Shown: positions 4,921-41,668 of the stretch, one piece after another
Layout: the number at the start of each line of letters is the position of its first letter
How positions within the stretch are numbered: position 1 is the first letter of the stretch
Source of the DNA: Escherichia phage SM_S24
Length of the DNA stretch: 43,039 nucleotides
Sequence record: PP920554.1
Reading direction: 5' to 3' (one strand)
The notes under the pieces: model-generated
What the model was told of the DNA's origin: nothing
What the model saw: only the letters and a program-made list of their open reading frames with translations
Databases searched by the model: none
Program-made: the position numbers and the translations under genes

Positions 4921-5032
4921 CCCGTCCGCAGACCCCGACGAGGATTTGATGATTGACGTGAAAAATATGGAATGCGGGGCGAAGCTAAGGGCGCAGGTGC
5001 TGGAGTTGCAGCAAATAATTAAGGGGCCGTAA
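4802..5032 (+). CDS. o-spanin (Rz1-like) outer-membrane lipoprotein
   Basis: 76 aa from ATG 4802 (RBS AAGAGG); signal peptide MLRALTALIVVLMLSAC with lipobox LSAC, Pro-rich mature part; starts inside Rz in another frame and runs past its stop (overlapped architecture). Confidence 0.65.
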   Translation: MLRALTALIVVLMLSACGSSNAPLMPLTESALRPPCKFDSPSADPDEDLMIDVKNMECGAKLRAQVLELQQIIKGP

Positions 5033-5573
5033 TGGCCCCTTTTTCGTTAGCGCGGAATACCGCACGGCAGCGTGGCTTATAGATCGGCAGCGATTTTCCG
5101 TCCTCGTCCACTTCACACACTGAAGCCAACATAACTGTCTCGAACCCCGGAACGATATCGCCGAGATCAGGCGAGAGCTTATTCATATATTTCTCTTCCC
5201 AGTATCCGCGATGTACGCGGTATTGGCGACCGTCACCGCTCAAGGACAAGATGCGAACATTGCCGCCTGCGTTGATTTCAAAGGTGGCGTCGTAAACGCT
5301 GCCGATACCCTTCGGGCGATCTGTGTCATAGCGATATGTTGCCTTGTTGGTGTATACGCTGACGCTGTACATCTGCGACTGGTCGTCGCGGATTGCCTTG
5401 ATATGCTCGCGGAGCGCTGCGAACGTGCGAATGCCTTCCGGCATACAGTCAAGCGTGATTGCGTACGCCAGATCGCGTGAGTCCATCATGATTTGTTTGG
5501 CTTCGGTTGCGATTTCGTGGTCGCGCAGGATGTTAGCCAGAATCTGATTTTTAATGACTTTAGTAAGTCTCAT
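5019..5573 (-). CDS. hypothetical protein (reverse-strand moron in head module)
   Basis: 184 aa from ATG at 5573 (RBS GAGGA, 7-nt spacer); the longer track ORF 5019..6020 is an N-terminal extension antisense to the scaffold gene; own promoter-like boxes upstream and terminator hairpin at its 3' end. Confidence 0.55.
   Translation of the reverse strand: MRLTKVIKNQILANILRDHEIATEAKQIMMDSRDLAYAITLDCMPEGIRTFAALREHIKAIRDDQSQMYSVSVYTNKATYRYDTDRPKGIGSVYDATFEINAGGNVRILSLSGDGRQYRVHRGYWEEKYMNKLSPDLGDIVPGFETVMLASVCEVDEDGKSLPIYKPRCRAVFRANEKGAITAP
5023..5044. terminator. bidirectional intrinsic terminator between Rz1 and the reverse-strand moron
   Basis: GGGGCC-GTAAT-GGCCCC followed by TTTTT; overlaps the last codons of both convergent genes. 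Confidence 0.6.
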
Positions 5574-5602
5574 TTTTGTGTCCTCGTTGTTGGTGTGCAA
5601 CC

Positions 5603-5631
5603 AATATATGCAACCAATACACGGATTGCAA
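5603..5631 (-). promoter_or_regulatory. sigma70-like promoter for the head-module moron, overlapping TGCAACCAAT boxes
   Basis: minus strand reads TTGCAA-17 nt-TATATT; spacer holds ATTGGTTGCA and a second copy lies just downstream. Confidence 0.45.
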
Positions 5632-11185: not shown

Positions 11186-11447
11186 GAAGCGGGACAAGCG
11201 GGACGCCCCGTTTTGTCCCGCCCCTGTAAAACTGCATATCTAATCACTTTCATTGCATAAACTCAAAGCGGGACAGGCGGGACGTCCCGTTTTGTCCCAC
11301 CCCTGAAATGTGCATACCTATTCGAATTTCGTGCATAAAACAAACGGGACAGAAAGCGGGACAAATGCGGGGCGGGACAAAGCGGGACAGCACCCCATCC
11401 CCACCAGTGCTGCCGCGGTTTTCAGCCGATCGGGACAGGCGGGACAA
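11186..11447 (+). repeat. array A of GCGGGACA(R) octamers with interspersed TGCATA(A) boxes
   Basis: at least 10 same-strand octamer copies (about 11189, 11198, 11268, 11277, 11343, 11355, 11372, 11382, 11431, 11439) plus inverted GTCCCGC copies; non-coding gap between GT stop and tape measure start. Confidence 0.8.
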
Positions 11448-16374: not shown

Positions 16375-16982
16375 CCACATTTAAATTGTACGGCGTCTTA
16401 GGACGTCGTTTTGGTAAAGTGCATAAGCTGGACTGTTTCACACCAGGCGAAGGCATCACCGGCCTGTGCGTGAAGTTACCCGGCTTACAGGAATTTCTAA
16501 TGTCGGCCCACCTGGACAACATGATGTTCAAAGTGCGCAAGGGCAATCACACAATGACCGGCTACGATGAGCTGGGCGAGTCCCACGGCAACCGCGTAGT
16601 AACAATCGCGCCGGTTATGACTGGGGCAAAAAGCGGACTGGGCCAATTGCTGGCGGGTGTAGCAATCGTGGTGGCGTCGTTCTATACCGGCGGGCTTGCG
16701 ACTGCCGCTTTTGGAGCTTCCGCGGCGACCGCGGCCTCTATCGGCGCAGCGACGTTTTCGTTCGGGATGTCGATGGCGCTGGGGGGCGTTATGCAATTGC
16801 TATCGCCGCAACCGAAAGGATTGCAGACACGGCAGGACGTGGATAACAAAGCGTCGTATGCGTTCGGCGGCCCGGTAAACACGACCGCGCAAGGTACGGC
16901 GCTTGGTGTATTATGGGGCGAGCGTGAGATCGGCGGCGCTATTATTTCAGCCGGAATCGTAACCGAGGACTTGAACGAATGA
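16365..16982 (+). CDS. tail assembly protein I-like
   Basis: 205 aa; Gly/Ala-rich hydrophobic middle (GAKSGLGQLLAGVAIVVASFYTGG) resembling lambda gpI; overlaps K and J. Confidence 0.7.
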   Translation: MAMTTFKLYGVLGRRFGKVHKLDCFTPGEGITGLCVKLPGLQEFLMSAHLDNMMFKVRKGNHTMTGYDELGESHGNRVVTIAPVMTGAKSGLGQLLAGVAIVVASFYTGGLATAAFGASAATAASIGAATFSFGMSMALGGVMQLLSPQPKGLQTRQDVDNKASYAFGGPVNTTAQGTALGVLWGEREIGGAIISAGIVTEDLNE

Positions 16983-19900
16983 CGATTATCTACGACGTCA
17001 CTGGGCATAAAGGCGGCGGCGGCAAACAGCACACCCCGCAGGAAACGCCGGATAGCCTGCATTCCCTGGCTAAAATTCGCATCTTGCTTGCGCTAGGGGA
17101 AGGGGAATTCGAAAGTATTACCAGCGACAGCGAATTACGGCAGCGTGTATATCTGGACGGCACTCCGATCCAGAACGCCGACCTGTCGGAAAACTTCCCC
17201 GGCGCGCGTGTGGAGTTCCGCCCTGGCACACAGCACCAGGATGTGATCCACGGATTTTCAGCGGTTGAAAGTGAGCAATCTGTCGGCGTAAAACTGGAAA
17301 ACGGCACGCCGTGGGTACGCCAGATTAACGATACCAGTCTGGACGCCGTTCGCATTCGCATCGGAATTCCGGCCCTGTACACTAACGAAGATAATGGCGA
17401 CCTGGTTGGCGGGCGCATCGACTATAAGATAGTTGTGTATACGGATAACGCCGACCCGCGTGAGTTCAGATTCGCCGCCGTTGGTAAAACAATGTCGCTA
17501 TATGAGCGCGACCACCGCATCGAATTACCTCCGAACGTTAACACCGGCTGGCGCGTGGAGGTGCACCGCATAACGGCAGACTCCACATCGGCGAAAGTGG
17601 TTAATGATATCCGGGTGCAGTCCATCACTGAGATTATTGACGCCCGCCTGCGTTACCCGCTAACCGCGCTGTTGTTTGTGGAGTTCGACGCCAAAGCGTT
17701 CCAGAACATCCCGCGCGTGTCCATCAAGTGCAAAGGACGTAAAGTGCTGGTGCCGAACAACTATGACCCGATTAATCATACCTATTCGGGAAACTGGGAT
17801 GGCACGTTTAAACGCGCATGGACGGATAACCCTGCGTGGCACTGGTATGATATTTGCATTACGGAGCGCTTCGGCCTCGGGCGTAGGATCAAGCCGCAAA
17901 TGCTGAACCGGTACGCGCTATACCAGATTGCGCAGCGCTGCGACCAGATGGTCAGTGACGGCAACGGCGGGCAAGAAATCCGCTTTAAGAATGATATGTA
18001 CATTCAGTCGCAGACAGACGCCTGGACCGTGCTTAAGGATTTAGCAGCTATCTTTGCCGGTATGACCTGGTGGGGCAACCAGATGTTGAATATCGTAAGT
18101 GACCAGCCGGTCGCAGCGGTATCGCACACTATCACCAACGCCTCGGTTATTGATGGCAGATTCGACTACGCGTCAGGGAGCCAGAAAACTCGCTATTCCA
18201 CGTTCGCGGTAGCATACGGCAACCCTAAGAACCACTACGAAGACGCCATCGCAACGGGACAGCGTGTCGAACTGGTGCGCCGCCATAAAATAAATCGCCT
18301 TGATATTACGGCGATCGGCTGTACGCGTGAATCGGAAGCGCAACGCCGCGGTCACTGGGCGCTAATCTCCAACCAGCTTGACCAGCAAGTTAGCTTTAAG
18401 GTTGGCATGGAAGGACTATTCTTTATTCCGGGTAGCGTAGTCGCTATCGCCGATACAAACATTTCTGGCGGCTTCGAGACACGCGGCGGTCGTCTGTTGT
18501 CAGATCCTGGCACGCGGACGGTGCTGAACACAGACAGCGAAATCACGTTCCGCCCCGGCGATAAATTCCTGGTACGCACCGATAGCGGTAATGTGGAGAC
18601 TCGCGAGATCGCCAGCGTCAACGGCAACAAGGTTACGCTAAAAACCGCACTGGACGCCGACCCGATTCCAGACCAGCCGTTTTGCGTTGATGGCGACGAT
18701 ATCCAGTTGCAAAAATTCCGCATCACCGACCTGGAATATGACGACTCTACTAGCACTTTCTCGGTGCGCGGGATTGAATACAACGATAGCAAATATGATG
18801 CCGTTGATAATGGCGCGCGCCTTGACCCAGGCATCTTTACGCAAGTGCCTGACGGGGTAATGAAGGGGCCGGAATCCGTGACCATCACCCCGTCGCAGAT
18901 TTCATCGCAAGGGCAGCTAATCACCAACGTGGATATTGTATTCCCTCCGGTGAAGGATGCCGTGGTGTATGAAATCCAGTGGAGGCGTACCAGCCTTCAG
19001 AATATGGAAATCCAGTGGGGTAACGACTGGGTGAATATCCCACGCACGGCGTCGAATGGGGCGCACATCCCTAACGTGTTCTCCGGTAACTACCAGGCAC
19101 GCGTCCGCGCGATCGGTATGGGCGAGATTTCATCTCCGTGGGTGTCGTCCGCCATCACGCCGGTGGAAGGTCGTCTCGGTGGGCTTAACGCACCAATCAT
19201 CACCAACGCTATTTCGGGCCTTCACCAGATCTTGTGGAAGTGGAACCACAACAACGCCGCTACTGATATCTCGTACACCGAGCTTGAAGTGCGCAAGACC
19301 GGTGAGACTGAATGGAAATTCCTTACCAACGTCCCATATCCGGGGGCGGAGTATGCGCAAACGTCGCTGGAGTTCGGCATATACCAGCAGTTGCGCGCCC
19401 GCGTAGCGGATAAAATCGGCAACCTGTCGGACTGGTCCGCCCCGTTTGAAGGCCAGGTGAGTGACAAAGTTGACGAGTATATGAAGGGGCTTGATGACGA
19501 GTTCTTGACTTCCGAGGATGGTAAACGCTTCCAGGAAGCAATCAACACGATCCCGCAAGGCATTTATGAGTCAATGCTCACCGACGCCCAGCAGCTATTC
19601 AACGCCCGCGCCGAGTACAAAGGGATTTATGCGGAAATCAAGGTAGCGTATAACGTGGCGGCGGATGCCCACCAGGCGGTGGCGCAACTGGAAACGTTGA
19701 TCGGCACTCGTCTTGACGATGCTGAAGCGGCAATCCATACGTTGCAGACAGCGCAGAGTACGCAGGAACAAGCGTTCGCCCAGTACCAGCAAACTGTCGC
19801 CGCTAAGTTTTCGGAACAGGAAGCCGCCATCCAGTCAGTGCAAACGGCAACGGCTGACGTAGCTGGCGCGCTGGCGGAGTACAAGACCCAGGTCGCGGCA

Positions 19901-20398
19901 CAGTTCGGGCAGCAGTCCGCCGCAATCGAGCAGAAGATGACGTCCACGTTTAACCACTCCGGTGGTAGCGCCACATACAGCCTTAAAGCTGGCGTGACGT
20001 ATAACGGGACTTACTACGACGCCGGTATGCAGCTTTCCGTTGTGACGTCTGGCAGCGCGGTTAAATCCCGCATCGCGTTCAAGGCGGACCAGTTCTACAT
20101 CATGCATCCGTCCAATGGGACGCTGTCGTCTGCGTTTATTGTGGACGGTGGCGCGGTGTATATCGACACGGCACGCATCAAGAACGCGTCCATCAACTTC
20201 GCGCAGATCACAGACACGCTGCAATCGAATAACTACGACGGCAGCACGCGCGGATGGCGCTTAGGGAAAGATGGAACGTTTATCAACCTGGGCACCGGTA
20301 GCGGCGGCGGGATGAAACAGACGAACACAAGAATCAGCGTGAAGGACGGAAACGGCGTTCTCCGCGTGCAGATTGGTGAGCTTACTGGTAGCTGGTAG
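16979..20398 (+). CDS. central tail fiber / host specificity protein J-like
   Basis: 1139 aa; N-terminus HKGGGGKQHTPQE and the NYDP..YSGNWDGTFK..AWHWYD..RYALYQIAQRCDQ block align by eye with lambda gpJ; C-terminal ~250 aa differ and contain internal repeats. Confidence 0.9.
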   Translation: MTIIYDVTGHKGGGGKQHTPQETPDSLHSLAKIRILLALGEGEFESITSDSELRQRVYLDGTPIQNADLSENFPGARVEFRPGTQHQDVIHGFSAVESEQSVGVKLENGTPWVRQINDTSLDAVRIRIGIPALYTNEDNGDLVGGRIDYKIVVYTDNADPREFRFAAVGKTMSLYERDHRIELPPNVNTGWRVEVHRITADSTSAKVVNDIRVQSITEIIDARLRYPLTALLFVEFDAKAFQNIPRVSIKCKGRKVLVPNNYDPINHTYSGNWDGTFKRAWTDNPAWHWYDICITERFGLGRRIKPQMLNRYALYQIAQRCDQMVSDGNGGQEIRFKNDMYIQSQTDAWTVLKDLAAIFAGMTWWGNQMLNIVSDQPVAAVSHTITNASVIDGRFDYASGSQKTRYSTFAVAYGNPKNHYEDAIATGQRVELVRRHKINRLDITAIGCTRESEAQRRGHWALISNQLDQQVSFKVGMEGLFFIPGSVVAIADTNISGGFETRGGRLLSDPGTRTVLNTDSEITFRPGDKFLVRTDSGNVETREIASVNGNKVTLKTALDADPIPDQPFCVDGDDIQLQKFRITDLEYDDSTSTFSVRGIEYNDSKYDAVDNGARLDPGIFTQVPDGVMKGPESVTITPSQISSQGQLITNVDIVFPPVKDAVVYEIQWRRTSLQNMEIQWGNDWVNIPRTASNGAHIPNVFSGNYQARVRAIGMGEISSPWVSSAITPVEGRLGGLNAPIITNAISGLHQILWKWNHNNAATDISYTELEVRKTGETEWKFLTNVPYPGAEYAQTSLEFGIYQQLRARVADKIGNLSDWSAPFEGQVSDKVDEYMKGLDDEFLTSEDGKRFQEAINTIPQGIYESMLTDAQQLFNARAEYKGIYAEIKVAYNVAADAHQAVAQLETLIGTRLDDAEAAIHTLQTAQSTQEQAFAQYQQTVAAKFSEQEAAIQSVQTATADVAGALAEYKTQVAAQFGQQSAAIEQKMTSTFNHSGGSATYSLKAGVTYNGTYYDAGMQLSVVTSGSAVKSRIAFKADQFYIMHPSNGTLSSAFIVDGGAVYIDTARIKNASINFAQITDTLQSNNYDGSTRGWRLGKDGTFINLGTGSGGGMKQTNTRISVKDGNGVLRVQIGELTGSW

Positions 20399-20402
20399 TA
20401 TA

Positions 20403-20421
20403 GGGGCTTCGGCCCCTTTTT
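20403..20421 (+). terminator. intrinsic terminator after the J-like gene
   Basis: GGGGC-TTCG-GCCCC followed by TTTTT. Confidence 0.65.
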
Positions 20422-20434
20422 AACGAGGTTATTT

Positions 20435-20737
20435 ATGGCATTCGGTATCGCAACGTGGGACGCGCAAGGACGCCCAAACAACTACGGCATTAAACCGGTA
20501 AGCGTGATCGGAAGGATTCATCTTGCGGAAGGACAAAAATCAGGCGCATGGTCATTCCCTGTACCGGCGGGGATGAAGGTCGGATACGTGGTCGCACTGG
20601 ATAAAGGCGCGGTCGGGCCAGGCCGCAGAATAACCGCCAGCGGGAACACTATCACGGTTTCCGCGGCAAGTGCGGTAGGTGGCGGGGTTTACTCCGCATC
20701 TGAATGTGACGTTATTGTTTTTGTGGAGCGAGCATAA
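20435..20737 (+). CDS. hypothetical tail-associated protein
   Basis: 100 aa, RBS ACGAGG after the J terminator; position only. Confidence 0.35.
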   Translation: MAFGIATWDAQGRPNNYGIKPVSVIGRIHLAEGQKSGAWSFPVPAGMKVGYVVALDKGAVGPGRRITASGNTITVSAASAVGGGVYSASECDVIVFVERA

Positions 20738-21411
20738 TGGCTAATTACGGCGCGTTGATTGACTTACCAAACGGCAACCCGTTTATCACGCCAGAATCGA
20801 CGCCGTTTTGTCTATTCCGCCGTGTGGTTGTTGGGTCTTCGGCTAACGGCACTGCGCAGTCGGCGGCTGCCGATATTAATTTGGGCGGTGACTACCCCGC
20901 AATAGCGTTTGTGAAAACTACGCACACCGCCCAGCCGACCGTCGTAGGGTCTTCTCGCGTTGGTAATGTGGTGAAGGTGAGCGCCAGCAATCCATTCGGG
21001 AAGGGCTTCACGATGACGGCTTACATCTTTGCTATATTCCCACAGTCCCTTCCGCGGTGGGGCTTCGCTATTTGGGATAAGACGGGGAAGCTAGTGCTTA
21101 CTAATGAGAGTCGCGTACTAAGTGATTTAGTTACCGTCGGATCGCCAGGCGCTAACGGGGGGATTAACATTGACCAGACGCTAAACGGCAGCTACGCCGT
21201 CGCTCCGGGCATATTGGGGTCTACGCTGATCCGGTTTTTTGTGCAGGGCCAGCCGCAAGTAATATCGGTAACGGCGTACACGGGGGCCAGATTTGATGGG
21301 TCGCGAACGCGTATATCGGCAGCGTCGTCGGGGAACGCCACGGGGGATGTGGTGGGGTATACTAACAACGGCAACGCGATTATGGCGATTAACACCGCCA
21401 ATTATGATTGA
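20737..21411 (+). CDS. hypothetical tail fiber-associated protein
   Basis: 224 aa, Gly/Ser/Thr/Asn-rich; followed by a bidirectional terminator. Confidence 0.35.
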   Translation: MANYGALIDLPNGNPFITPESTPFCLFRRVVVGSSANGTAQSAAADINLGGDYPAIAFVKTTHTAQPTVVGSSRVGNVVKVSASNPFGKGFTMTAYIFAIFPQSLPRWGFAIWDKTGKLVLTNESRVLSDLVTVGSPGANGGINIDQTLNGSYAVAPGILGSTLIRFFVQGQPQVISVTAYTGARFDGSRTRISAASSGNATGDVVGYTNNGNAIMAINTANYD

Positions 21412-21413
21412 AG

Positions 21414-21437
21414 AAAGCCCCGAAAGGGGCTTATTTG
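21414..21437. terminator. hairpin at the convergent junction of tail gene and lipoprotein gene
   Basis: AGCCCC-GAAA-GGGGCT followed by TATTT on the plus strand; T-rich on the minus strand too. Confidence 0.5.
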
Positions 21438-21649
21438 CAGGTTGTGCTTTTGAAGTGGTCGACCGACACATACTGGAAGTTGAATGGGTATCCCGCCCGT
21501 AACATTTTATGACCGCTAACGTCTGCAACCCCAAACACAGGGACGGAATACTCCACGCCACTATTCATGTATGTCGCGTCGCAGACTTTAGTCGGCATGT
21601 TGGCACAACCCGACAAAAGAACCCCACAAATCATAATTAAAGTTTTCAT
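21431..21649 (-). CDS. small lipoprotein, candidate superinfection-exclusion protein (Llp/Cor-like)
   Basis: 72 aa from ATG 21649 (RBS AGGAG, 8-nt spacer); signal peptide MKTLIMICGVLLSGC with lipobox LSGC; reverse orientation between tail fiber genes. Confidence 0.5.
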   Translation of the reverse strand: MKTLIMICGVLLSGCANMPTKVCDATYMNSGVEYSVPVFGVADVSGHKMLRAGYPFNFQYVSVDHFKSTTCK

Positions 21650-21729
21650 GGTATCATCTCCTATATTTGGTCGAGTTTTAGTATCGCACCGCTCGACCAG
21701 GATTGCAACCAATTTAAGAGGATTCAGCT

Positions 21730-22728
21730 ATGGCAGCGGGTACACTATCCGTAACGAATAACAGCAAGGCGGTTGTCGGGGTCGGCACAACGTTTACGGC
21801 GTTTAAAGCGGGCGACTTCTTAACGCTGGTGGTGGGTCAAGTCCCCTACACCGTAGCGATCGCGTCCATTGAAAGCGAAACCGCGCTTACGCTGGTGTTA
21901 CCGTTCGACGGCCCAACGGCAACCGGCCTAGCGTGGGATGGCGTTAAGCGCGATACCATGTCACTGGCAACGATGGGCGTTACCGTACAGGCACAAAAAG
22001 CATTGCGCTTGATGATTGCAGATGAAAACAACTGGCGTGCCATCTTCGGCGACGCTGAAGAAATCACCGTGACGTTGCCTAACGGGCAGGTAATGCAGGG
22101 TATGTCATGGGGCTACCTATCGCAGTTGATGAAACAGATCGACCCAGTGGAGATGCGCGACCTGCAACAACAAGCCGCCGCATCGGAAGCAGCCGCGCAG
22201 GGATACCGGAACGAGGCCGAACAATTCAAGAATGCGATCGACCCGGCGCTGATCACTGAATGGCGAGACTTTCTGGTTCGGGATTTAAACACAACAGTTG
22301 ATAGTAACGGTTTTATTAAAATTGCGTCCCCTATTGTAAAAATCAAAGGTGACGGAAGCGCCGAGCTAAACGATGAATCCGAAGGGTGCACGGTCACACG
22401 TGTTGAAAAGGGTGTTTACCTTATTTCAGGGTGTCTAGGACTTAACTCTGACGCATCGTGGGGCGGTATTGACGGTGGTTTCGAGATACCCGTGGACATC
22501 AACAAGCAGCCGCTGATATGGATCGATTATAAAGTTTTGTCTGACGGTTCCATTGAGCTGCGGACGTACCACCGCACTTACCAAGAATCGCCAGTTTTCG
22601 CAAGGAATATTATTGAGGGAATAAACGACGGCGACCCTATTGACATCCCACCGGGTACTTATGTTTCGGTGCGTGTTGAAATGCCATCGTCTGATACGCA
22701 AGCCACAGTCCCTCTATACGGCGCGTAG
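21730..22728 (+). CDS. tail fiber / receptor-binding protein (putative)
   Basis: 332 aa, RBS AAGAGG; N-terminal GTLSVTNNSKAVVGVGTTFTAF fiber-type motif; last rightward structural gene, followed by a bidirectional terminator. Confidence 0.5.
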   Translation: MAAGTLSVTNNSKAVVGVGTTFTAFKAGDFLTLVVGQVPYTVAIASIESETALTLVLPFDGPTATGLAWDGVKRDTMSLATMGVTVQAQKALRLMIADENNWRAIFGDAEEITVTLPNGQVMQGMSWGYLSQLMKQIDPVEMRDLQQQAAASEAAAQGYRNEAEQFKNAIDPALITEWRDFLVRDLNTTVDSNGFIKIASPIVKIKGDGSAELNDESEGCTVTRVEKGVYLISGCLGLNSDASWGGIDGGFEIPVDINKQPLIWIDYKVLSDGSIELRTYHRTYQESPVFARNIIEGINDGDPIDIPPGTYVSVRVEMPSSDTQATVPLYGA

Positions 22729-23944: not shown

Positions 23945-23974
23945 ACTATAGTGCAACCAACCTATTGGTTGCAA
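23945..23974 (-). promoter_or_regulatory. sigma70-like promoter with inverted-repeat operator
   Basis: minus strand TTGCAA-18 nt-TATAGT; spacer holds palindrome TGCAACCAA-CCTA-TTGGTTGCA; a 5' UTR hairpin follows. Confidence 0.45.
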
Positions 23975-25564: not shown

Positions 25565-25645
25565 CGTGTTGTCTCCAGGTATTAAAAAAGGCGTCCAAAC
25601 CGGACACCCTTAAGATAATGCAACCAATATGATTATGCAACCAAT

Positions 25646-28553: not shown

Positions 28554-28582
28554 ACTATACCGCTATGCGACCAATTCAGCAA
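28554..28582 (-). promoter_or_regulatory. sigma70-like promoter for the zinc-ribbon operon
   Basis: minus strand TTGCTG-17 nt-TATAGT with ATTGGTTGC / ATTGGTCGC boxes at the -35 and in the spacer. Confidence 0.4.
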
Positions 28583-28841
28583 CCAATAAATCACAGTCGG
28601 CGATGTTGTCTATAACGCGAACGTCAGCGCCGCGGCGGGCCATCCGCTCATGTTCACGTACCTGGTGCGGCTTCGGTTTTCCTCCTGGGCGCTTCACTTC
28701 AACGAACACTATTTTGCCGTTGATGATGATAATCAGGTCGGGCGCACCTGCGCGCCCCTCCCAGGCCATTTTGCGGCAGAATCCGCCTACCTCTTTCACC
28801 CGTCGCATCAGGTGACTTTGAATCTTGCCTTCTGGTGTCAT
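28563..28841 (-). CDS. VRR-NUC domain nuclease
   Basis: 92 aa from ATG 28841 (TAATG overlap with the polymerase stop); GAPDLIIIINGKIVFVEVKRPGGKPKPHQ matches the VRR-NUC PD-(D/E)XK core. Confidence 0.7.
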   Translation of the reverse strand: MTPEGKIQSHLMRRVKEVGGFCRKMAWEGRAGAPDLIIIINGKIVFVEVKRPGGKPKPHQVREHERMARRGADVRVIDNIADCDLLVAELVA

Positions 28842-32134: not shown

Positions 32135-32199
32135 TTTCCAATTCCTCATTTTCACATGTATCGGGGTTATTATGAGCCACCCCGTTCGGCTTGGTTGCT

Positions 32200-32228
32200 A
32201 ATCTACTTGGTTGCGCCTAAGCGGTCAA
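32200..32228 (-). promoter_or_regulatory. sigma70-like promoter for the SSB operon
   Basis: minus strand TTGACC-17 nt-TAGATT; GCAACCAAG in the spacer and again just downstream of the -10. Confidence 0.45.
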
Positions 32229-35090: not shown

Positions 35091-35120
35091 ATGATAGATT
35101 GGTTGCAGGATGGGTGTCAA
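35091..35120 (-). promoter_or_regulatory. leftward early promoter (sigma70-like)
   Basis: minus strand TTGACA-18 nt-TATCAT; TGCAACCAAT box inside the spacer. Confidence 0.55.
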
Positions 35121-35296: not shown

Positions 35297-35626
35297 ATGA
35301 ATATCAAAGAAGCAATTGAAGTGTTATCTAATGCAATCCGCGGCGAAGCGGGTAAATCCTGGTATTACACAAATGCGGTGGATACTCTGTTATTTGAAGT
35401 GTCCAGATTATCGCGTGCTGAGAAGGAGCTTACCGCGAAGCTGGAATTACTCAACGGTACGGCAGCAAGCAAGCTGCAAAAGCACAATGAAGAAATGGAA
35501 GAATACAAAAAACAGGTTATCCGTCTACGTGAGGAAGGTAAATCCTGGGCGATGATTGCCGAGTTGACCGGAATTAATCAGAGCACAGTGCGCTCCTGGG
35601 TACGCAATAATAAAACTTCTAAGTAA
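35297..35626 (+). CDS. HTH DNA-binding protein (putative transcriptional regulator)
   Basis: 109 aa, RBS AGGAG; C-terminal helix-turn-helix-like segment WAMIAELTGINQSTVRSWV; first rightward gene at the divergent promoter region. Confidence 0.55.
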   Translation: MNIKEAIEVLSNAIRGEAGKSWYYTNAVDTLLFEVSRLSRAEKELTAKLELLNGTAASKLQKHNEEMEEYKKQVIRLREEGKSWAMIAELTGINQSTVRSWVRNNKTSK

Positions 35627-35636
35627 GGCCACGGCA

Positions 35637-37901
35637 ATGAGCTTAATTAAATTCGCTGTAACAAGACCCGCTAAAAAAGGCGAAAAAGCCAGGGCGGAAA
35701 ACTTCCAGATGACTACCGAAGAGTTTTTCGAATTTATCAATGATGCGAAAGAAATCTCCTCGGTGCATATCAACAAAACGGAAGATAAAGCCGAGTATGC
35801 ACGCCGCAAGCGTAAGGCCGACGGCATCGTGGCGTATACCAGTGACGGATTGCGTCGCAAGACCAGTGCGGTGGACCGCTCGATCCTGTTCTTCGATATT
35901 GACCGTACTGACACCCGCACCCTACGCCGCTGCCGTAAGGCGTTCATCGACGCGGGACTGGAGCACGTCTTCCACACCACAACCGGCGACCGTCACCCAC
36001 TGAAAGGTGGAACGCGTTGCGCTCGCTTCCTGGTGTTGACCGACAAGCCTGTACCGGCTGAAGACCTGGGCCGTGTCCAGTATGCGCTATTACACCAACT
36101 GGGCCTGTCAGATGTGGACTTCGACGACTGCACGAAAGACACAAACCGCCTTATGTACCTACCACACCAGCAGTCTGTTATTAAGTGCCACTATGGCAAG
36201 CGCGCCCGCGTCCGTCGTCTGCTTCGCCTGGCTGACAAGCTGGGAGTTGAGAAAGAGGAAGTCCGCCGCGAACTGACCCAGGGCGACGACGCAGTGGCAG
36301 ACGGCATTCTGGACTGGTGCTTCCAGGCAGGATTCGAGGAGTTATCTTCCGGTCGGGGTTATGAAGTGCCGTGCCCGAACGAACATCTGCACAGCGGCGA
36401 AGGGTCGACGGCTATCATGGTCAAGGATGGCGAGATCCGTTTCAAGTGTATGCACACAGGCAACGAGTGTTGCTCGGAACTGAATAGGCACCAGCACCTG
36501 GCGCTACGTCTTATCGGGATCCCGGACCACCTGAACGTCGAGCCACACAATATGTCCCGTAAGCAAATCGCCGCCATCCTTCCGGGGCTGGACGACGAAG
36601 AAGTCGAATCCTTATATGAACATATTGTTGATGCAGTTGGCGACGGCGAAGAATACGGCGTGTGCACCGATGCAGATCTGGATAACGAGCCGGTTGCGCT
36701 GTTCAGTAAGCACGACCCGATTATCGAGGGGTTGATTAACTTTAAATCGACCTGGTACATGGCGGGTGAGTCGAATATCGGTAAGTCTTTCTACGTGCTG
36801 GGCCAGATGGGTGCGGTTGCCGCGGGGATTCCGTTCGGCGGTGCGAAGGTCGTCCAGTCTCATTGCTTCTATTTCGACGCGGAAGGTGGTGAAGCCTCCA
36901 ACCAGCGTAAGGAAGCACTGCAGATCAAATATGAGCACGACCTGGATAAGCTGCACATTATAGACCTGCAGTCACGCGGCTGGGATATCACCAGCAAATC
37001 AGGCTTGCGCGAAGTTATCAGCTTTATCAACCGCACCGCTAACGGCGAACCGGTTGGCCTGGTGGCGTTCGACTCTCTCAACCAGACTGTTGCGCTGCGG
37101 TCCGCCGATGCTAAACCGTTCGACGAGAACAACGCCAGCGATATGGGCGAAGTGGTAAAAGCGCTGAAAGCCATCGCGGAAAATACCGGCGGCAGTGCTG
37201 GCGTCATCCACCACCCGGCGAAGGGTGCAAACGGCAGCAGATCCCCCCGCGGGTCCGGCGCGCTGCATGGTGCTGTTGATTCTGCGTTCTTCCTTGAGCA
37301 ACCGGACGACAACCAGCCAGGCCAATTGAACCTGTATCACGAAAAGGCACGTAACGGCATCAAGCAAGCGCCGCGTGGCTTCGTCCTGCTCAAGTGCAAG
37401 GTGAAGGTAGATCTCCGCAAGTCAGAAGCGTTCGCGTCGCACCAGTCCACCAGCACCGGTCCGGACTTCGGCGACGTGGTTGCCGGATGGGACGTCAAGC
37501 CGATTGCCTCCACGCCACGCGACGAGACTCTCTACCTCGTACCGGTTGCCCTGGCACCGTTCGCTATTGAACAGGCGAAGGCCGCGGGCAAAGCAGCAGT
37601 TAAAGAAGAGAACACCGCCGGACCGCGCAACGAAAAAGAGAAAGTGCTCTATGCGGCACTGGAAAAACTGATGGAAGATAACCCGGACCATACTGGATTC
37701 AGTAAATCGGCAATTGTCCGCCAGGCTGGGCTGGCAAAAGGTGGCACTTCGACGAAGGCAATCGACGATATGGTGGAGCGAGGAGTGATAGGTTTTTACA
37801 CCGATCCGCACACCGGGGCCATCTATGGGTCGTCTAATTTGGTCATCAAATCGGATATACCCATCACGCTTTCAGCGACCGATGACGATTTAAAAGATTA
37901 A
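35637..37901 (+). CDS. primase-helicase (AEP-type primase, zinc-binding region, P-loop NTPase)
   Basis: 754 aa; N-terminal DxD-type motif ILFFDIDRTD, Cys/His cluster CPNEHLHSGE...CMHTGNEC, Walker A GESNIGKS and Walker B-like LVAFDSL; iteron array begins at its stop codon. Confidence 0.7.
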   Translation: MSLIKFAVTRPAKKGEKARAENFQMTTEEFFEFINDAKEISSVHINKTEDKAEYARRKRKADGIVAYTSDGLRRKTSAVDRSILFFDIDRTDTRTLRRCRKAFIDAGLEHVFHTTTGDRHPLKGGTRCARFLVLTDKPVPAEDLGRVQYALLHQLGLSDVDFDDCTKDTNRLMYLPHQQSVIKCHYGKRARVRRLLRLADKLGVEKEEVRRELTQGDDAVADGILDWCFQAGFEELSSGRGYEVPCPNEHLHSGEGSTAIMVKDGEIRFKCMHTGNECCSELNRHQHLALRLIGIPDHLNVEPHNMSRKQIAAILPGLDDEEVESLYEHIVDAVGDGEEYGVCTDADLDNEPVALFSKHDPIIEGLINFKSTWYMAGESNIGKSFYVLGQMGAVAAGIPFGGAKVVQSHCFYFDAEGGEASNQRKEALQIKYEHDLDKLHIIDLQSRGWDITSKSGLREVISFINRTANGEPVGLVAFDSLNQTVALRSADAKPFDENNASDMGEVVKALKAIAENTGGSAGVIHHPAKGANGSRSPRGSGALHGAVDSAFFLEQPDDNQPGQLNLYHEKARNGIKQAPRGFVLLKCKVKVDLRKSEAFASHQSTSTGPDFGDVVAGWDVKPIASTPRDETLYLVPVALAPFAIEQAKAAGKAAVKEENTAGPRNEKEKVLYAALEKLMEDNPDHTGFSKSAIVRQAGLAKGGTSTKAIDDMVERGVIGFYTDPHTGAIYGSSNLVIKSDIPITLSATDDDLKD

Positions 37902-38167
37902 ATTTTGCGCGCATTGGTCGCCGTTATGGGAATCCCCATATCGGTAAAAGATTAAATTTTGCGCGCATTGGTCGCCGTTATGGGAATCCCCATATCGGTA
38001 AAAGATTAAATTTTGCGCGCATTGGTTGCCATTTTGCGTGCTTTTAGCCGGTCGTTAAAAGATTAAATTTTGCGCGCATTGGTCGCCGTTATGGGAATCC
38101 CCATATCGGTAAAAGATTAAATTTTGCGCGCATTGGTTGCCATTTTGCGTGCTTTTAGCCGGTCGTA
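37892..38167. repeat. iteron array, candidate origin of replication
   Basis: five tandem 54-57 bp units (A-A-B-A-B) sharing core AAAAGATTAAATTTTGCGCGCATTGGT(C/T)GCC with the 8-bp palindrome TGCGCGCA; begins at the primase-helicase stop codon. Confidence 0.6.
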
Positions 38168-38194
38168 TTGGTTGCCGTGTAGTGTAAATATAAT
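38168..38194 (+). promoter_or_regulatory. promoter-like element upstream of GGGACA array B
   Basis: perfect TATAAT at about 38189-38194 with weak -35 (TTGGTT, 15-nt spacer) inside an ATTGGTTGCC box. Confidence 0.35.
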
Positions 38195-38224: not shown

Positions 38225-38330
38225 AAGCGGGACAAAAAGCGGGACAGACCAGGGGCGGGACAAAGCGGGACAGCACCCTGTCCCGCCCCGGATGACGCGG
38301 CCTGGCGAGGAGCGGGACAGCGGGACAGCA
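38225..38330 (+). repeat. array B of GCGGGACA(R) octamers
   Basis: copies at about 38227, 38239, 38255, 38265, 38312, 38321 plus inverted TGTCCCGC at 38279; preceded by a TTATGCA/TGCATAA inverted pair and a TATAAT box. Confidence 0.8.
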
Positions 38331-38383: not shown

Positions 38384-38542
38384 CATAAAATCCGGGATTG
38401 CATAACGCACGGCAACAAGATGCGAATTGCGGTCGTCGATGAACTAGGCAACCAATGCGCGTTGCAGAATGGTGGGCGAAAAATGCAGTTTGCAGTTGCA
38501 GCAGATAGCGATCAACTTTTTCATGCGCGTGATTAATATTGG

Positions 38543-38571
38543 TTGCATTCACCCTGGCACCCTGCTATTTT
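38543..38571 (+). promoter_or_regulatory. promoter-like element upstream of the 38600 operon
   Basis: TTGCAT-17 nt-TATTTT; -35 inside ATTGGTTGCAT, second TTGGTTGCA just downstream; region nearly identical to the moron 5' region. Confidence 0.45.
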
Positions 38572-38599
38572 GGTTGCACACCAACAAGAGGACTGAACG

Positions 38600-38926
38600 A
38601 TGAGAGCGATTATCTGGAATTACGCAATGGCTATGGCGGCGGCACAAGAAGCGGCGGAGTTCGCCGGTGAAGGAGCGGAAGCGGTCGAAAGACTATCGGC
38701 AGCGTGGTCCGTTGTTCGCGTTACGCAGCAGGCCATCGCCTGTATGCTGGAGCGCCGCTTCGACACTATGGCAGAGATTCAGCCACTGGCGAACGCTATC
38801 CAGGATTACGCGCTTGCCTTTGCCCGTGAGCGCCTGGCGTATCGCTTCGGGATCGGCGAGACGGCAGTGACTAACGTCGCCCGGATTAAAGCCCAGCGTG
38901 AGCTATTCTCCCAGCTTGCGAAATAA
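38600..38926 (+). CDS. hypothetical protein
   Basis: 108 aa, RBS AAGAGGA 7 nt upstream; first gene after the second GGGACA array. Confidence 0.45.
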   Translation: MRAIIWNYAMAMAAAQEAAEFAGEGAEAVERLSAAWSVVRVTQQAIACMLERRFDTMAEIQPLANAIQDYALAFARERLAYRFGIGETAVTNVARIKAQRELFSQLAK

Positions 38927-41608: not shown

Positions 41609-41638
41609 TTGACTTGCAACCAATTAATAGCTCATACT
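41609..41638 (+). promoter_or_regulatory. promoter-like element upstream of the leader-like peptide and HTH-phosphoesterase gene
   Basis: TTGACT then TGCAACCAAT in the spacer, -10-like CATACT, second TGCGACCAAT downstream. Confidence 0.4.
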
Positions 41639-41668
41639 GCGACCAATCAACGAGAGGAGTAATACACT

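Follow-up and report, generated by a model that had tools for sequence, protein, structure and literature searches.

The short reverse-strand gene that lies between the receptor-binding genes and the lateral tail fibre gene of Escherichia phage SM_S24 is very probably cor, carried by a Dhillonvirus that depends on FhuA and is a lytic siphovirus of the HK578/SO-1 kind; taken as a whole, this is the best explanation of the locus. The window, by which we mean the entire 43,039-nucleotide stretch of record PP920554.1, is that of a Dhillonvirus, a genus of lytic siphoviruses, and is 96.7% identical to phage Over9000 over 25 kb. As a gene, cor is nothing new: it is an ordinary, already annotated member of a well-described cassette that has been set out repeatedly (Wietzorrek 2006; Maffei 2021; KanT1 paper, 2026).

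The cor reading frame and its signals

A sequence-only reading of the region had proposed that the interval 21431-21729 encodes, in reverse, a 72-aa lipoprotein precursor with its own ribosome binding site (RBS), a member of the class of superinfection-exclusion lipoproteins that includes Cor and the Llp protein of T5. The elements of the gene are these:

21431..21649, minus strand: cor coding sequence, 72 codons plus the TAA stop; precursor of the phage exclusion lipoprotein Cor
21605..21649, minus strand: signal peptide codons 1-14 (MKTLIMICGVLLSG) and the acylated Cys15, read from the sequence
21605..21616, minus strand: lipobox L12-S13-G14-C15, read from the sequence
21658..21662, minus strand: RBS AGGAG, 8 nt upstream of the cor ATG and identical in all 12 Dhillonvirus loci compared

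The reading frame runs on the minus strand from an ATG at 21649..21647 to a TAA at 21433..21431, and its full translation, MKTLIMICGVLLSGCANMPTKVCDATYMNSGVEYSVPVFGVADVSGHKMLRAGYPFNFQYVSVDHFKSTTCK, begins MKTLIMICGVLLSGC, exactly as had been quoted. The precursor is thus confirmed, and so is its RBS. Only the extent needs trimming: the gene occupies 21431..21649, and the remainder, 21650..21729, is an 80-bp spacer that separates cor from the plus-strand fibre gene, whose start is at 21730. In the N-terminal region a lysine (K2) is followed by an uncharged hydrophobic stretch, the lipobox and an alanine at the +2 position (A16). Judged by the PROSITE-style rule for lipoboxes, the proposed lipoprotein signal is borne out, and the G14 and C15 of the L-S-G-C15 sequence are invariant in 79 homologues.

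Among seven Dhillonvirus alleles, the variable sites of the frame number 14, 7 and 38 at the first, second and third codon positions, as expected under purifying selection on the minus-strand reading. Two plus-strand reading frames that overlap cor (21509..21640 and 21567..21761) are set aside on the same ground, as variability peaks at the third codon position of cor. An alternative TTG start at 21712, which would give a protein of 93 aa, is also rejected: it would bury the signal peptide, it has no RBS, and the homologues all begin MK.

Membership of the Cor family

The protein passes the NCBIfam equivalog model NF047972, "phage exclusion lipoprotein Cor", with 60.1 bits against a cut-off of 31 over residues 2-71, and it matches PHROG 1119, "Cor superinfection exclusion protein", end to end (E 1.9e-27, residues 1-72). 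With identities of 49% to T1 Cor and 40% to phi80 Cor, and with all of the residues that are invariant in the family present, the proposed place in the Cor/Llp class finds good support. Pfam has no model for Cor, and the sole Pfam match is meaningless (E 0.1). A single-sequence search of a large protein database by word index returned only six close relatives, and an alignment search was then used; by tblastn, a Cor homologue is found in 244 of 50,697 phage records. Identity is 100% to the gene annotated as Cor in phage Zumzum and also to that of Over9000, 87.5% to Envy, 82% to JLBYU60 and 79-94% to other Dhillonviruses, and by tblastn the T1-like phages stand at about 50%, and phi80, HK75 and ES18 at about 40%. 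Zumzum, Over9000, Envy and JLBYU60 all have this gene in the corresponding place, where its existing annotation is superinfection exclusion protein; their versions differ from the present one by allelic variation only, mostly synonymous.

Three features mark the family: the cysteine that carries the lipid anchor, an (R/K)AGYPF core, and two more cysteines, one close to each end of the mature protein. Whether 11 or 79 homologues are aligned, G14, C15, C23, A52, G53 and C71 are invariant, and Y54, P55 and F56 are nearly so (at least 90% conserved among the 79). The Cor proteins of T1, phi80, N15, HK022 and mEp167 resemble the present one in full-length homology, in the lipobox, in the two extra cysteines and in the RAGYPF motif. 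The lambdoid proteins differ in that the present Cor is shorter by a 3-residue gap after the lipobox. A further difference is that the lambdoid hosts of cor are temperate, whereas the present phage is a lytic Dhillonvirus, so that its cor cannot act as a prophage moron.

Could the protein instead be an outer-membrane spanin subunit of the Rz1 type, or some other lysis accessory? Small phage lipoproteins with such signal peptides are often o-spanins, but Pfam, PHROG and NCBIfam searches gave no spanin family match, and the spanin, holin and endolysin of the relatives are annotated elsewhere in the genome. With cor located in the tail and receptor module, and with the Cor equivalog model passed, we regard a lysis function as extremely improbable.

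Gene neighbourhood and the receptor

The genes and signals that surround cor are:

16979..20398, plus strand: J-like tail-tip protein gene (Pfam J domains)
20435..20737, plus strand: 100-aa gene, homologue of N15 gp22, T1 ST32 and phi80 gp22 (PHROG 557)
20737..21411, plus strand: 224-aa gene, homologue of N15 gp23, T1 ST31 and phi80 gp23 (PHROG 425)
21415..21432, unstranded: G+C-rich hairpin AAGCCCC-GAAA-GGGGCTT, where the 224-aa gene and cor converge; it overlaps the cor stop
21730..22728, plus strand: lateral tail fibre gene, 332 aa, divergent from cor (PF25670, E 8e-60; tail fibre PHROGs)

Relative to cor, transcription of the J, gp22-like and gp23-like genes is convergent and that of the lateral tail fibre gene divergent. 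The earlier placement of the gene between tail fibre genes is right for the right-hand neighbour only; on the left are the 100-aa and 224-aa genes that follow J, and the 100-aa gene opens the FhuA-type receptor-binding locus, or cor cassette. The order, with cor directly after J and the pair of N15 gp22/gp23-like genes, is common to T1, phi80 and JLBYU60, and the Cor proteins of T1, phi80, N15, HK022 and mEp167, whose genes hold the same position, come from relatives that use FhuA. T1 matches this order exactly: its cor, too, is reversed and follows a terminator, which is annotated at the corresponding position. The cassette of phi80 is likewise the same but for cor, which is co-oriented with J. 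The hairpin at 21415..21432 (-14.0 kcal/mol and z -3.2 on one strand, -12.4 kcal/mol and z -3.6 on the other) is likely a bidirectional terminator. A consensus terminator scan missed it because its U-tracts are weak, just below the thresholds.

The lateral tail fibre is 84-86% identical to the JLBYU60 and HK578 fibres over its N-terminal ~200 aa. At 332 aa it is shorter than the fibres of JLBYU60, Over9000 and HK578 (561-613 aa), and it ends in a different C-terminal module (PF25670), in keeping with the swapping of a glycan-binding tip.

Which receptor does the phage use? Identity to the JLBYU60 counterparts is 98.3% for J (over its full length), 99% for the 100-aa protein and 99.1% for the 224-aa protein, and experiments have shown that JLBYU60 requires FhuA and, within it, loop L8 (PMC10373560). 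Because of this near identity to a phage that is itself FhuA-dependent, the terminal receptor of the present phage is most probably FhuA, a TonB-dependent transporter, and the earlier suggestion of a TonB-dependent outer-membrane receptor is well supported. The 100-aa protein, 99% identical to JLBYU60 gp25, is 70% identical to phi80 gp22 and 54% to T1 ST32. The 224-aa protein, which at 99.1% corresponds to JLBYU60 gp26, is a candidate FhuA-binding protein at the tail tip, and a protein of the gp26 type has been modelled on FhuA (PMC12309495). In the BASEL collection the full three-gene cassette occurs in FhuA users only, and the cassette is regarded as the FhuA-type receptor-binding locus of small siphoviruses (PMC8594841; PMC13164509).

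One might ask whether Cor is directed at another receptor, such as BtuB or a further TonB-dependent transporter. Lipoproteins like Cor and Llp are also found in phages that use BtuB (PMC13164509), and the present Cor is only 82% identical to the Cor of FhuA-dependent JLBYU60. The adjoining receptor-binding locus, however, is 99% identical to that of JLBYU60, the differences among cor alleles are mostly synonymous, and Envy-type alleles (87.5%) come from phages that are themselves reported to depend on FhuA (PMC10373560). The restriction of the full cassette to FhuA users in the BASEL survey (PMC13164509) also stands against a different target, which we consider very unlikely.

How Cor might inactivate FhuA

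The T5 Llp protein is the obvious point of comparison. Llp is likewise a small outer-membrane lipoprotein that targets FhuA, with three cysteines that align with those of Cor and a small beta fold that may resemble the one predicted for Cor; RefSeq in fact labels T5 Llp "Cor superinfection exclusion protein". The two proteins are only about 27-29% identical, and the RAGYPF motif is absent in Llp. T5, moreover, binds FhuA by means of pb5, a protein that has no relationship to the gp22/gp23-like proteins of the present phage. The Llp mechanism is solved, whereas that of Cor is argued by analogy.

Several comparisons connect the two proteins. Alignment of the Cor profile with T5 Llp by hhalign gave a probability of 91.7% (E 7.7e-7) over 73 columns with the three cysteines aligned, a score that stems in part from the signal peptides. 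A phmmer search of Cor against the PDB had Llp (8A60_B) as its sole match, at E 0.28. An AlphaFold2 model of Cor built from 79 homologues has four beta-strands and a mean pLDDT of 82.5, and its top match among 350,542 PDB chains is again 8A60_B, Llp bound to FhuA. Taken alone, that match is weak (Foldseek E 0.037; TM 0.50/0.57, rmsd 2.8 A, 51 columns). The BFVD matches of the model include lipoproteins of T5-like phages, at E 9e-4 to 7e-3.

In the crystal structure, Llp is periplasmic and binds a non-native state of the FhuA plug, with the effect that extracellular loops EL7 and EL8 turn inward and cover the site at which phages bind; a Cys11-Cys58 disulfide joins the termini of Llp (PMC9586334). 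In mature numbering the cysteines of Cor would be Cys1, Cys9 and Cys57. The Dhillonviruses JLBYU37, JLBYU60 and Teewinot depend on FhuA loop L8 (PMC10373560), which fits a block that works through EL8. [quoted passage not shown]

By analogy with the solved FhuA-Llp complex, then, Cor most likely jams FhuA allosterically from the periplasm. [quoted passage not shown] After export, the precursor would be acylated on Cys15 and cut by signal peptidase II; the mature protein of 58 residues would adopt a small beta-sheet fold, with a disulfide between Cys23 and Cys71 as its clamp. Mature Cor would bind the periplasmic face or the plug of FhuA, as T5 Llp does, and lock FhuA in a state whose extracellular loops refuse the phage receptor-binding protein. 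Superinfecting FhuA-dependent phages would thereby be excluded. The term "masking", which the sequence-only reading had used, probably does not apply literally, as the FhuA-Llp analogy points to allosteric action from the periplasm rather than to a shield on the outside.

It is quite unlikely, in our judgement, that Cor works in a manner unlike Llp, blocking FhuA at the cell surface, or indirectly by way of OmpA, OmpC or OmpF. In work of Arguijo-Hernandez (2018), as relayed by the KanT1 paper that cites it, Cor reportedly interacts with, and needs, other outer-membrane proteins, and such a report would favour a different mode of action. The molecular mechanism of Cor itself has been described as not yet elucidated (bioRxiv 10.64898/2026.03.26.714494), and the first AlphaFold3 attempts docked Cor on the outer face (PMC13164509). 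Against these points stand the alanine at +2 and the standard lipobox, which predict a periplasm-facing inner-leaflet anchor; the profile similarity and cysteine pattern that are common to Cor and Llp, and the fold that they probably share; the periplasmic position of Llp in its crystal structure (PMC9586334); and the high-confidence periplasmic AF3 model of KanT1 Cor (PMC13164509).

What does a lytic phage gain from a receptor block? In addition to excluding other phages, Cor in such a phage would spare progeny from being wasted on FhuA in cell debris. It is a real possibility, though one that falls short of probable, that this protection of progeny ("lytic conversion") is the main benefit, with FhuA on lysed-cell debris and vesicles inactivated and virions kept from irreversible adsorption. 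The phage belongs to a lytic genus, cor has a putative promoter of its own outside the late operon, and the protective role is named in the KanT1 paper (PMC13164509) and, for Llp, in the T5 literature (PMC9586334). Progeny protection does not, however, amount to a different molecular mechanism; it and exclusion both follow from the same inactivation of the receptor, and sequence cannot separate the two.

The putative cor promoter

The sequence-only reading had pointed to a box, ATTGCAACCAAT, in the intergenic region toward the fibre gene. The box is there, exactly and in one occurrence only, at 21702..21713, but it is oriented to cor and forms part of the cor upstream region rather than that of the fibre gene. 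The elements of the spacer are:

21702..21713, minus strand: the box, which in the minus-strand reading is ATTGGTTGCAAT, one copy of the genome-wide motif ATTGGTTGC
21703..21708, minus strand: putative -35 of the cor promoter, TTGCAA, the 3' half of the box
21680..21688, minus strand: putative extended -10, TGc-GATACT, 17 bp downstream of TTGCAA, read from the sequence
21668..21699, unstranded: inverted repeat TGGTCGAG-N16-CTCGACCA, which encloses the putative -10; a possible operator or hairpin

The box begins 56 nt before the cor ATG. We infer that cor is expressed from a sigma-70-type promoter in the 80-bp spacer, with its -35 inside the ATTGGTTGCAAT box. This is a consensus reading in which each hexamer has 4 of 6 matches, just below the threshold of a promoter scan, and the scan did not list a cor promoter. 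The promoter geometry, the RBS and the first five codons are kept in all 12 Dhillonvirus loci, and in the relatives the -10 reads TG(c/t)AATACT. A comparable layout is found in T5, where llp is divergent from the tail/receptor gene oad and promoters are annotated in a spacer of about 80 bp (T5 110349-110449).

Two other readings of the box were discarded. As a plus-strand promoter of the fibre gene, it would be paired with a -10 of AGCTAT that overlaps the start codon; a true palindrome it is not, as only ATTG/CAAT are complementary. The inverted repeat at 21668..21699 has an RNA fold of -12.3 kcal/mol (z -2.5), and its changes among 12 relatives include compensated, wobble and uncompensated ones, a mixture that speaks neither for nor against a structure. 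Rfam gave no match in the cor spacer region at E up to 1, and a riboswitch or RNA hairpin there finds no support.

The putative cor promoter shares its motif class with promoters outside the structural operon, and from this we would suppose that production of Cor probably precedes the late structural transcript or does not depend on it.

A genus-wide promoter-associated motif

The box belongs both to the cor promoter and to a genus-wide motif that is associated with promoters. The core, GCAACCAAT, has 14 copies in the window against 0.49 expected, a number reached in none of 100 shuffles. The 14 exact copies of the motif, ATTGGTTGC(A), lie at:

5597-5618, 21705-21713, 23953-23972, 25620-25645, 28567-28587: first five of the ten intervals
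32191-32214, 35098-35106, 37914-38175, 38448-38577, 41616-41646: last five of the ten intervals

These copies are mostly intergenic, and they often form direct pairs 12-35 bp apart, or in one case an inverted pair. In some of them the motif contributes a TTGCnn hexamer that resembles a -35, with a -10 17 bp further on, and putative promoters of this class front several genes, in the minus-strand block at ~22.8-35.1 kb and in the plus-strand block from ~38 kb.

The motif is kept in Over9000 and HK578, with 13 copies each, and the box is conserved in every Dhillonvirus upstream region examined. Of the degenerate form TTGGTYGC, 12 of 20 copies in Over9000 and 14 of 25 in HK578 are intergenic, in genomes of which intergenic DNA makes up about 6%, and in both phages many copies sit 45-73 nt upstream of a same-strand start codon. 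A -10-like hexamer follows at 16-18 bp in 6 of 27 and 6 of 25 motif copies, against about 1 expected. A literature search with the motif string returned unrelated primers only, and we found no description of the motif in the searchable literature.

The motif may be an operator for a phage regulator. It is conceivable, if doubtful, that ATTGGTTGC(A) is an undescribed Dhillonvirus-wide operator at which such a regulator, for which a 109-aa protein is a candidate, sets a temporal class of promoters that includes that of the exclusion lipoprotein. The gene of the 109-aa protein (35297..35626, plus strand) is called "transposase" in relatives, and its product matches Sigma70_r4_2 and HTH_23 at about 29 bits, above the Pfam cut-offs. 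That this sigma region-4-like protein reads the -35-overlapping motif is pure speculation.

Directly after the primase/helicase gene is a tandem array, 37891..38166, of 54-bp units in 4.6 copies (also readable as 111-bp units), each with ATTGGTYGC; five of the 14 motif copies are there. After the array, at ~38189, is a near-consensus -10, TATAAT. The array at 37891-38166 may be an early regulatory region or an origin. The 8-mer GCGGGACA has 18 copies against 2.0 expected, with two clusters of seven at 11189-11446 and 38227-38327, the one in the non-coding gap before the tape-measure gene and the other after the tandem array. Are these copies iterons, or sites for a binding protein? Inside the plus-strand head module there is also a minus-strand gene, 5019-5573; ahead of it come two motif copies in tandem and TTGGTTGCACACCAACAACGAGGAC, which recurs almost verbatim before the plus-strand gene at 38600.

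Probable recombination at the receptor locus

What evolutionary events have shaped the cassette? In HK578, the slot of the cor cassette is held by genes of the Rtp44/Rtp45 kind, which belong to the LptD type. The HK578 J protein is 96.4% identical to the present J over residues 1-1099 and unrelated beyond. The swapped cassette has its left edge in the last ~40 J residues, where relatives of the FhuA type and of the LptD type part ways. On the other side, the HK578 exclusion lipoprotein has the promoter region and MKTLI in common with Cor and then diverges. In a third type, found at two loci on IMG/VR Dhillonvirus contigs (L012 and L021), a complete Cor-type signal peptide, MKTLIMICAVLLSGC, is fused to an Rtp45-like mature part, which indicates a recombination junction at the lipobox. 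From the points at which J and the lipoprotein diverge, the unit that is swapped would begin in the last ~40 J codons and end, within the lipoprotein gene, at the signal peptide or lipobox. In all, the one Dhillonvirus slot is occupied by three kinds of exclusion lipoprotein (L012, L021; L011 21320-21550).

Rtp45 and its HK578 relative, gp24, do the same kind of job as Cor in blocking the receptor of their own phage, and they share with cor the slot, the promoter region, the RBS and the first five codons. They differ in that their target is LptDE and in their pairing with a same-strand Rtp44-like receptor-binding protein. BLASTP of the present Cor against HK578 gp24 gave no match at E 1e-3, and the mature parts are unrelated.

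A second discontinuity lies within the FhuA-type cassette. Among FhuA-type Dhillonviruses the two receptor-locus genes are 98-100% identical in DNA (window 20300-21650 against loci L026, L018 and L022), whereas the middle of cor (21500-21600) is 77-80% identical in the same comparison, with differences that are mostly synonymous. At the protein level, Cor is 82% identical to JLBYU60 Cor though the adjoining proteins are 99% identical. The drop from 98-100% to 77-80% DNA identity suggests that cor and the receptor genes have had separate recombination histories; it also suggests a recombination break at the terminator between them.

Implications

Apart from the known cassette, the locus offers small additions: a conserved putative promoter with a genus-wide motif, a junction near the lipobox, and a cor allele far more diverged than its neighbours. 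These are of interest mainly for the engineering of receptor modules or the mapping of transcription in small siphoviruses. If the operator reading of the motif were true, the receptor-blocking lipoprotein would stay in its promoter class whichever cassette, FhuA, LptD or the third type, is swapped in, since the junction lies after the promoter and signal peptide. For annotation, the cor cassette lets the probable terminal receptor, FhuA, be read from sequence. The presence of cor also predicts cross-exclusion with phages of the T1, T5 and phi80 types, which matters for the composition of phage cocktails.
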